From IMG/VR virus record IMGVR_UViG_2563366983_000010: a stretch of DNA of 33,981 nt; one strand, given 5' to 3'. The notes under the pieces were generated by a model, which ran no database searches, was not told the origin of the DNA, and saw only the letters and a list, made by a program, of their open reading frames with translations. The DNA is from a virus (taxonomy: Duplodnaviria > Heunggongvirae > Uroviricota > Caudoviricetes). The translations under genes and the position numbers were made by a program. Every line of letters starts with the position of its first letter. Position 1 is the first letter of the stretch. Positions 1,693-2,757 of this stretch are shown one piece after another.

Positions 1693-1937
1693 GCAAACAA
1701 ACCCTGGACAAACAGGTGATAACACCCTGCTTAGTGGCTTTTCAGGCCTGGCAGGGGAAAAGTGCGGAGGTAGTCAGATAAGTAAAATCTACACGCGCGA
1801 ATAAGTAGACCACAGCAAAGGGAAAAAGTGTGGGGAAAGAGTGTGCACGAAGCACAAATTTACAAAAATGCAAGTTTGAAAAGAGACTTTAGCGTTACAA
1901 AAAGCAGTAAAAAGGGCCAGCTAACTTAAAGCGCGCG

Positions 1938-2008
1938 AAATTATTTGATACCGTTTTGGATTTTTTTTGATACCACCCAAAACGGCATTACGGAAAATTA
2001 TTTGATAC
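1938..2008. repeat. Prophage right-end repeats: three direct copies of TTTGATAC(C/T), candidate transposase end-binding sites
   Basis: Exact 14-bp direct repeat AAATTATTTGATAC at 1938-1951 and 1995-2008, plus TTTGATACC at 1966-1974. They sit between the mom stop codon and the eptB upstream region, where Mu carries R1-R3. The sequence differs from the Mu R-end as I recall it. Confidence 0.45.
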
Positions 2009-2757
2009 TAATCATCGATGTTTTTGGGGTATGGCTGAACCCTGAATAGCTTGGTGTTTAGGCGCTTTTTTGCGCGCTTGTTCAGGAATCTGATGTAGCG
2101 ATACTGATTAAATTTGTGTACCACGGCCCGCTCCTTATTAGCCCGCAAATACTCGCCTCGTTGTCCTCCGCGCTTAATCGCGTTCATCGTTATCTCGTGA
2201 TACCACTCGCCGTCCAGTTCGTAGAACGTGCTTTCATGGCTACCAATAAAATCAAAATTCGACGCCTGATACACAACGCCTGCGCGTCCGCAGCGTTCGT
2301 CTGCAAAGGACTGAACCCACTCCACTGACGGATACAATAACCTGATGGTTTTCAGCGCGTAGCTGATGGCCCGTGACTCAGAGTTGCGGGGCATGTCGTC
2401 GTGTAGCCACATGCGGTTCAGTTCCATATAGCCCCGGTTATCCGTTCCAGGCACGACCCGACGCCCTGAGTTGGGGTTAAGGGCATATCCCCACTGAAGA
2501 ACGCCAACCAGATCACGTCCGCTGAATACGCCAAGATGCAGGTAGGAGTTATTCACAAAACGGCGGGAATAGTGTTTTGTCTGAATGATTGTGCGGGCCA
2601 GCCAGCAGGATATGGTTTCAACACGTAGCTCCTTTGAACCATAGCCGACAATCCGGCCTTCATACTCAATAACGCAGGGTTTTGTCAGAACGCGTGATTT
2701 CTTCTCTTTTCCCACAATACAGCTCCGTGGGATGCTCTTTGGCATTCGATATGACAA
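2008..2757 (-). CDS. mom: DNA modification protein Mom-like (adenine modification, anti-restriction)
   Basis: Last ORF before the right end, overlapped at its 5' end by the com zinc-finger gene, as in Mu. True start is probably downstream of 2757 near the com stop and may be non-ATG. Confidence 0.7.

Follow-up and report, generated by a model that had tools for sequence, protein, structure and literature searches.

A Mu-like prophage with TA termini between eptB and yhjX of Escherichia coli: right end, end repeats and target duplication

The 33,981-nt viral sequence IMGVR_UViG_2563366983_000010 (IMG/VR; Caudoviricetes), the whole of which is referred to below as the window, starts in the host gene eptB and passes from there into a Mu-like prophage. 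The prophage/host junction is real and lies at 1926|1927. We consider it very probable that the right attachment end (attR) occupies positions 1927-2026 and belongs to a Mu-like prophage of 33.4 kb sitting in the transcription terminator of yhjX, that this end carries sites for the phage's own transposase, and that eptB is essentially unaffected. The junction as such is ordinary. The end system is modestly interesting, its properties amounting to a modest variation on the Mu paradigm: TA termini, a TTTGATACY site core, a target duplication that is usually 4 bp, and a transposase far from MuA but with a Mu-type tail.

Junctions, termini and target duplication

1922-1926, no strand assigned: copy of the 5-bp target-site duplication TAACT, from comparison of both junctions with the empty site
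1927-2026, + strand: attR end module, terminus 5'-TAAAGCGCGCG, TA at 1927-1928; at least 12 independent right junctions start at this T

The window is made up of eptB (1-1692, - strand), 234 bp of host intergenic DNA (1693-1926) and then phage DNA to its end. A 1-kb query across the region matched the host side in 5,423 of 5,426 complete E. coli genomes, none of which continued from the host side into phage; among the matches listed the host match reached only to 1924-1926, and host identity stops by 1926. The empty-site comparison thus puts the junction at 1926|1927, 234 bp upstream of the eptB ATG (1690-1692). In strain ATCC 11775 the empty site reads ...AAAAAGGGCCAGCTAACT|GGCCCAAATTTT... 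(insertion point ...GGGCCAGCTAACT|GGCCC) and sits between eptB and the 3' end of yhjX, both genes being on the - strand, with the yhjX stop codon 89 bp to the right of the insertion point. The phage side can be fixed from relatives inserted elsewhere: prophages in yihF, mhpA, rlmB, yciH and other loci share common sequence from the T of TAAAGCGCGC, which is window position 1927, as does the packaged genome of the Yersinia phage vB_YpM_Tongde (hereafter Tongde), while the base preceding this T differs among insertions. The phage therefore starts at 1927.

These results support the first-pass annotation of this DNA in reading the region as the right (mom-proximal) end of a Mu-like prophage. Its boundary guess is borne out by the empty-site comparison, and the distance from eptB that it gave as about 230 bp measures 234 bp. 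The exact terminus, which it could not locate, is 5'-TA at 1927-1928. It had expected TG...CA, but both ends are TA (5'-TATTGAG...GCTTTA-3'); the 5-bp target duplication that it also expected is found at this insertion, as the TAACT listed above.

The left end was reached indirectly. An exact-pattern search of genome contigs for the predicted left junction returned no match, and the relevant assembly was found through an exact-protein look-up of the transposase, which located the identical 693-aa protein at 10 loci with different host flanks. One of these (L013, scaffold KB732739.1 of the source assembly GCA_000351565.1) matches the window's reverse complement without a single difference across their 12,082-bp overlap, and in it yhjX adjoins the phage left end. 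The left junction there is ...AAAATTTGGGCCAGTTA|TATTGAGAAGGAG... (flank written ...GGGCCAGTTA|TATTGAG), the window right junction on the same strand is ...GCGCGCTTTA|AGTTAGCTGGCCC (also written ...CTTTA|AGTTAGCTGG), and the native target is GGGCC-AGTTA-GCTGGCCC. Comparison of both junctions with the native site gives a 5-bp duplication, AGTTA, or TAACT on the window + strand. The second TAACT copy abuts the phage left end outside the window (L013 8635-8639), and the prophage is 33,416 bp long.

The same termini, 5'-TATTGAG...GCGCGCTTTA-3', are found at a minimum of 12 independent junctions per end: 13 left junctions start at the T of TATTGAG, each of the four bases occurring in front of it, and at least 12 right junctions end in ...GCGCGCTTTA with a varying neighboring outside base. 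More than 20 different flanks are represented, and 11 insertions could be paired left with right: nine of the window type, one of the type seen in E300082, and one of the type seen in enterohemorrhagic E. coli (EHEC; FORC_069). Ten of these 11 pairs have unambiguous 4-bp direct repeats (TCCA, CGTT, GTCA, CGGA, CGCA, ATTC, AGTA, TGCG, TGCC, CTAA), the only 5-bp case being the one studied here. This exception would be accounted for by a stagger that is occasionally 5 bp, or equally by an extra base carried over from a previous flank. Strand transfer in the lineage would normally use a 4-bp stagger, with the end sites positioning the transposase for cleavage and joining at the terminal ...TA-3' and not at Mu's ...CA-3'; that cleavage occurs exactly at TA is something we infer from the termini.

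Two ways of removing the difference from Mu were considered and rejected. The 4-bp duplications might have been assembly errors in STEC388 and A21, an explanation dropped because eight further pairs from other assemblies agree. Alternatively, one base might be trimmed from either or both termini of the elements to give a uniform 5-bp duplication; such parsings fail because the native targets do not contain the terminal T and A, which are missing both from the eptB/yhjX empty site and from the yciH and mhpA reading frames.

End repeats, transposase and gene content

1941-1952, + strand: R1, candidate transposase site TTATTTGATACC; core at nt 18-26 from the terminus, the same offset as at the left end and in three sublineages
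1963-1974, + strand: R2, candidate site TTTTTTGATACC; core at nt 40-48, 22 bp after R1
1998-2009, + strand: R3, candidate site TTATTTGATACT; core at nt 75-83, overlapping the mom stop by 2 nt
1948-1988, - strand: 14-bp inverted repeat around R2, arms 1948-1961 and 1975-1988; hairpin on the mom transcript, without a U-tract
2008 to about 2745, - strand: mom (Pfam Mom PF25680, E = 2.7e-76; RefSeq homologs named "protein mom"); start uncertain (2715, 2745 or 2757)
31900-33981, - strand: transposase of 693 aa, a distant MuA relative, with DDE residues D307, D373 and E413; presumed to recognize the ends

Three + strand TTTGATAC(C/T) sites lie within the right end, TTTGATACC at 1944-1952 and 1966-1974 and TTTGATACT at 2001-2009. 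The motif TTTGATACY has five matches in the whole window against 0.47 expected, a count that none of 100 shuffles reached. At the left end of window-type prophages it occurs at nt 18-26, 124-132 and 164-172 from the terminus, and all copies at both ends point inward from their own terminus. In two other sublineages, with transposases only 57% identical to that of the window, the right-end offsets are the same (18-26, 40-48, 75-83), and the left-end copies lie at 18-26, then 113-121 or 122-130, then 164-173. The layout is thus kept in three lineages, although the spacer sequences have diverged, and the offsets coincide with those of CGAAA cores located in Mu ends. These comparisons argue strongly that the repeats are functional end-recognition sites, in which case the TT(A/T)TTTGATAC(C/T) sites would serve as R1, R2 and R3 for the phage's own transposase, whose binding to them we infer from the conserved arrangement.

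End-binding repeats had been proposed at this end from the outset, and their recurrence with the same motif and offsets at the left end, in a layout shared by three diverged sublineages, favors that proposal. They had been placed within the last 75 bp; the three sites are real, but they span nt 18-83 and so take up the last 83 bp. The innermost copy does overlap the mom stop codon, as had been noticed: CTA at 2008-2010 is TAG on the - strand, an overlap of two bases. This overlap is not conserved, since the mom stop of the EHEC-type end lies 46 bp further in, and it is therefore best read as tight packing and not as regulation.

Another possibility is that the TTTGATAC repeats are not transposase sites at all, but an AT-rich by-product of the mom 3' end, part of a terminator or regulatory hairpin, or sites for some other protein. 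The position of R2 inside a well-folding inverted repeat would fit such an origin (as RNA, the 14-bp repeat has a folding energy of -18.4 kcal/mol, z = -3.0), as would the extra TTTGATACC copies at 19906 and 22225. The motif is, however, also present at the left end, where there is no mom gene, with the identical 18-26 offset and inward orientation; the layout is constant in three lineages despite diverged spacers, including the EHEC type, which has no inverted repeat; and the motif is missing altogether from relatives that combine a near-identical mom with classic Mu ends. An origin of the repeats apart from transposition is accordingly most improbable, and we retain their assignment as putative transposase sites.

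The inverted repeat itself is present in window-type and E300082-type ends and missing from the EHEC-type end. A terminator scan did not call the hairpin, and a role as mom terminator is not claimed for it, given the lack of a U-tract and of any counterpart in the EHEC-type end. Separately, the two further exact TTTGATACC copies deep in the prophage (19906-19914, - strand; 22225-22233, + strand) may be chance occurrences or internal transposase sites.

The transposase ATG coincides exactly with the window end. The protein is 24% identical to MuA over its full length, and a phmmer search against solved structures matched the MuA I-alpha domain only, weakly (1TNS, E = 9e-4), plus retroviral integrase cores, with no match to any solved MuA catalytic-core chain. 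Among Pfam models, Mu-transpos_C and HTH_Tnp_Mu_1 scored above their cut-offs and rve below its cut-off, and neither a MuA core nor an I-gamma model matched. If the MuA family is taken in the narrow sense, by similarity in the catalytic core and I-beta/I-gamma, this transposase falls outside it. Its last 32 aa are a different matter, 26 of the 32 matching MuA. There is a mosaic joint in the gene (window 31900-31986): the last ~28 codons, together with the downstream B-gam region, are ~86% identical to Mu DNA, and the homology, running from gam through B, reaches 84 nt into the transposase gene from its 3' end and no further. The tail of the Mu transposase contacts MuB and ClpX; the location of the joint within the gene thus suggests that the Mu-type tail and the Mu-type B gene have been kept as a pair. 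The C-terminal tail is different in the transposases of the E300082 and EHEC types.

A second joint is found at the other side of the prophage. Classic Mu right ends (TGAAGCGGCGCACGAAAAACG...) are found in relatives whose mom and com are 98-99% identical, with homology breaking at about 2027, inside the last mom codons, and some of these classic-end relatives (KFu019, L025, L029) encode an identical tail-fiber protein. A 100-bp end module thus appears, from these alignments, to have been exchanged between otherwise near-identical phages. Because of the joints at the transposase 3' end and at about 2027, the transposase and the ends seem to behave as an exchangeable module.

The remaining gene content is Mu-like. 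Pfam searches of the window and L013 identified HTH_35 (ner), Mu-transpos_C, Phage-MuB_C, Phage_Mu_Gam, Mor, Zn_ribbon_Com and Mom. The genes next to mom are:

2666-2851, - strand: com, translational activator of mom (PF10122 Zn_ribbon_Com; RefSeq homologs of the Com family)
3016-4833: tail-fiber gene, 605 aa

There is no gin/hin invertase gene or invertible G segment between the com and tail-fiber genes (2852-3015, 3016-5368), an absence that probably contributes to the short length of 33.4 kb. A21 and Tongde have a recombinase gene at the com/tail-fiber position.

The short length raises the possibility that the prophage is an immobile remnant, with the TA ends and 4-bp duplications reflecting decay. 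It is 33.4 kb long against 36.7 kb for Mu and without a gin invertase, and some relatives, such as STEC388 and A21, have frameshifted genes. Decay is nevertheless hard to reconcile with an identical 693-aa transposase and identical ends at 10 loci in different assemblies, with termini that are invariant in at least 12 junctions per end, or with the deposited phage genome of Tongde, which has the same termini joined to host DNA that is unrelated on the two sides, as expected if a transposing phage is packaged by the headful mechanism. We regard the remnant explanation as very unlikely, and prefer that of a transposing lineage. The annotated frameshifts or internal stops affect gam and a hypothetical gene in STEC388 (L008) and baseplate J in A21 (L010): either some copies of the lineage are damaged, or indel errors are present in these two assemblies.

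Relation to Mu and distribution of the end type

The prophage resembles Mu in being transposable and in its gene order, c, ner, A and B lying at the left end and mom and com at the right. Each end has three sites, which on the right are contiguous with an R1-R2 spacing of 22 bp and on the left comprise one terminal site and two ~110-170 bp inside. The terminal bases are also close: TAAAGCG here and TGAAGCG in Mu, and TATTGA here and TGTATTGA in Mu, whose ends in AF083977 read TGTATTGATTCAC... and TGAAGCGGCGCACGAAAAACG... Unlike Mu, however, it has the termini TA...TA instead of TG...CA, a duplication that is usually 4 bp instead of 5, and the site core TTTGATACY in place of the ...RCGAAA-type MuA consensus (CGAAA-containing 22-mers). 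The right-end sites are also all direct here, whereas in Mu the core at the R3 position is inverted (TTTCGCG); we take this inverted site to be Mu R3.

Among transposable phages more generally, TG-CA was kept in all Mu-like and B3-like phages and prophages described up to the survey of Olo Ndela, Enault and Toussaint (2021; PMC8705779), with duplications of 5 bp in Mu and 6 bp in B3. The same survey reported TA-TA ends as new in Leptospira prophages (WETA1 type), with 6-bp duplications, and left their existence in other bacteria for investigation. The prophage studied here is like the WETA1 prophages in having the TA dinucleotide at both ends of a transposable element. Compared by description, it is unlike them in other respects: they are spirochaete prophages with a B3/Tn552-family transposase and 6-bp duplications, while this one is Mu-like, belongs to a group found in E. 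coli and Yersinia, and has duplications of 4 bp, once 5. The duplication length likewise separates it from the B3/Tn552-type phages, with their 6 bp (PMC8705779).

One relative deposited as a phage genome is Yersinia phage Tongde (MT591577, Muvirus), whose right end is 94% identical over 84 bp and whose transposase region has ~91% DNA identity. It shares the termini, with TAAAGCG at position 523 of the record and ...CTCAATA at 37182. It differs in being a packaged 36.7-kb genome with unrelated host DNA on both flanks and in having a DNA invertase gene. The EHEC-type prophages, found in EHEC and Shiga toxin-producing E. coli (STEC), are more distant, with a right end ~77% identical and a transposase 57% identical. 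They share the TA terminus, TTTGATACY at 18-26, 40-48 and 75-83, and, in the one pair examined, a 4-bp duplication; they differ in the spacers, the terminal 17 nt, the C-terminal tail of the transposase and a mom stop free of R3 overlap, and they occur in ~205 genomes versus 12. They may correspond to the Sp18 type of O157 Sakai. Termini, att sites and duplications are absent from the paper on related vB_YpM phages, and termini and duplications are not discussed in the papers on Yersinia Mu-like phages and Sp18.

These counts come from the same 5,426 complete E. coli genomes, of which 215 had any match to the right end: 12 at ≥90% identity and 205 at ~77%. The right-end type is thus found in about 4% of complete E. 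coli genomes. The ~77% group includes O26, O103, O111 and O157 strains, and all four of the members inspected have the TA start and the same motif layout. A distant search mode was needed for the counts: when the 104-nt right end or the 221-nt left end was used as a megablast query, no more than one or two genomes were recovered, probably due to its 28-nt word requirement and low-complexity masking. In one O26 strain (E. coli RM10386; L046 2460-2640), an EHEC-type Mu-like prophage lies inside the portal gene of a lambdoid prophage, so that one prophage inactivates another.

An enterobacterial Mu-like lineage with TA-TA ends and 4-bp duplications appears to be undescribed in the searchable literature, which misses much older Mu work: no paper besides PMC8705779 was found to combine these terms, much of the older Mu literature being outside the search. 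On balance, though by a narrow judgment, we favor the view that this is a widespread and active lineage (about 4% of complete E. coli genomes, EHEC included, and a plaque-forming Yersinia phage) in which ...TA-3' ends are processed, and the target cut with a 4-bp stagger, by a distant relative of MuA, and that no TA-TA group was known before outside Leptospira and none with a 4-bp duplication. If this is correct, a tractable host would make it possible to test directly why DDE transposons and retroviruses otherwise conserve the terminal CA so strongly, terminal CA/TG being among the most conserved features of their DNA ends. Leptospira prophages are hard to work with, while the present lineage occurs in E. 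coli and Yersinia and includes a relative isolated as a phage; natural mosaics pair the same late genes with either classic Mu or TA ends, and the duplication length differs as well. Together, these would make it a comparative system for end recognition, the role of the terminal dinucleotide and target-cut geometry. A practical consequence is that boundary tools seeking TG...CA and a 5-bp repeat will mis-call such prophages.

Consequences for eptB and yhjX

1-1692, - strand: eptB, Kdo2-lipid A phosphoethanolamine transferase, intact, 563 aa (RefSeq empty-site annotation; Pfam Sulfatase and EptA_B_N)
1693-1796, - strand: eptB 5' untranslated region (UTR), 104 nt, start at 1796; the 3' part of primer JW10412 maps to 1796->1773
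1805-1831, - strand: sigma-E-like eptB promoter, -10-like GTCTAC at 1805-1810 and -35-like ACACTT at 1826-1831, 15-nt gap
1899-1920, - strand: orphaned 3' half of the yhjX terminator, CTGGCCC at 1914-1920 and U-tract TTTTTACTGCTTTTT at 1899-1913, from the empty-site comparison and RNA folding

The element actually hit by the insertion is the yhjX terminator hairpin. In the empty site, 89 bp after the yhjX stop, this intrinsic terminator reads GGGCCAG-UUAG-CUGGCCC-UUUUU and folds with -18.2 kcal/mol (z = -2.7); neither of the halves left in the lysogen retains the hairpin. The prophage would have transposed into the loop and 3' arm of the terminator, 130 bp upstream of the eptB transcription start.

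That start can be placed from the supplementary primer JW10412 ("eptB fwd") of Adams et al. (2021; PMC7815308), in which the cloned eptB 5' UTR begins GCGTGTAGATTTTACTTATCTGAC; the UTR start GCGTGTAG... maps to window position 1796. Expression of eptB depends on sigma-E (RpoE) and is repressed by MgrR and ArcZ (PMC6358824). The junction is at -130 relative to the start and about 95 bp beyond the -35, so that the promoter and the MgrR-targeted UTR are untouched. The hexamers GTCTAC and ACACTT are presumably the eptB sigma-E -10 and -35, an assignment based on the sigma-E consensus. With the start at 1796 and the hexamers at 1805-1831, the promoter is not immediately adjacent to the junction at 1926|1927, contrary to what the first-pass annotation had stated. 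Nothing known to control eptB is disrupted, and its regulation in the lysogen should be essentially unchanged, given the retained sigma-E promoter, UTR and 130 bp of upstream DNA.

The proposal that the insertion changes envelope-stress-regulated eptB expression, and hence phosphoethanolamine modification of Kdo, could still hold through disturbance of the promoter or read-out from the phage. The genes mom and eptB are on the same strand with no terminator-like site between the mom stop and eptB; the split yhjX terminator, which normally stops upstream transcription, leaves a half that does not fold; and a genomic SELEX (systematic evolution of ligands by exponential enrichment) study found an RNA polymerase holoenzyme binding peak in the eptB-yhjX spacer. 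Set against this are the distance of the junction (-130), the intact sigma-E-like -10/-35 and full 104-nt UTR, and the stable 14-bp hairpin after mom. In Mu, moreover, lysogens keep mom silent, and its expression is confined to the late lytic stage, shortly before lysis of the cell. Within 1500-3000, a sigma-70 promoter scan found no promoter and Rfam matched no RNA family; a terminator scan of the interval from the mom stop to eptB found no terminator-like site. The case for an effect on eptB is weak and such an effect unlikely; the question is of little weight, the damaged signal belonging to yhjX.

Some observations do weigh against our overall reading of an attR in the yhjX terminator with its own transposase sites and little consequence for eptB. 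The 5-bp duplication at this very insertion falls outside a simple 4-bp stagger model, and conservation of the motif alone does not establish which protein binds the sites. The eptB start comes from the primer design of one paper, and regulatory sites beyond -130 are possible. As no terminator was detected in the interval from the mom stop to eptB, transcription may read through from mom into eptB, conceivably during late lytic transcription in particular.

For yhjX, loss of the terminator means that its transcripts would enter the phage left end. About 350 nt inside that end, at the 3' end of the repressor gene and on the opposite strand, there is a terminator-like hairpin with a T-tract (L013 8987-9000, + strand), which could stop read-through from yhjX.

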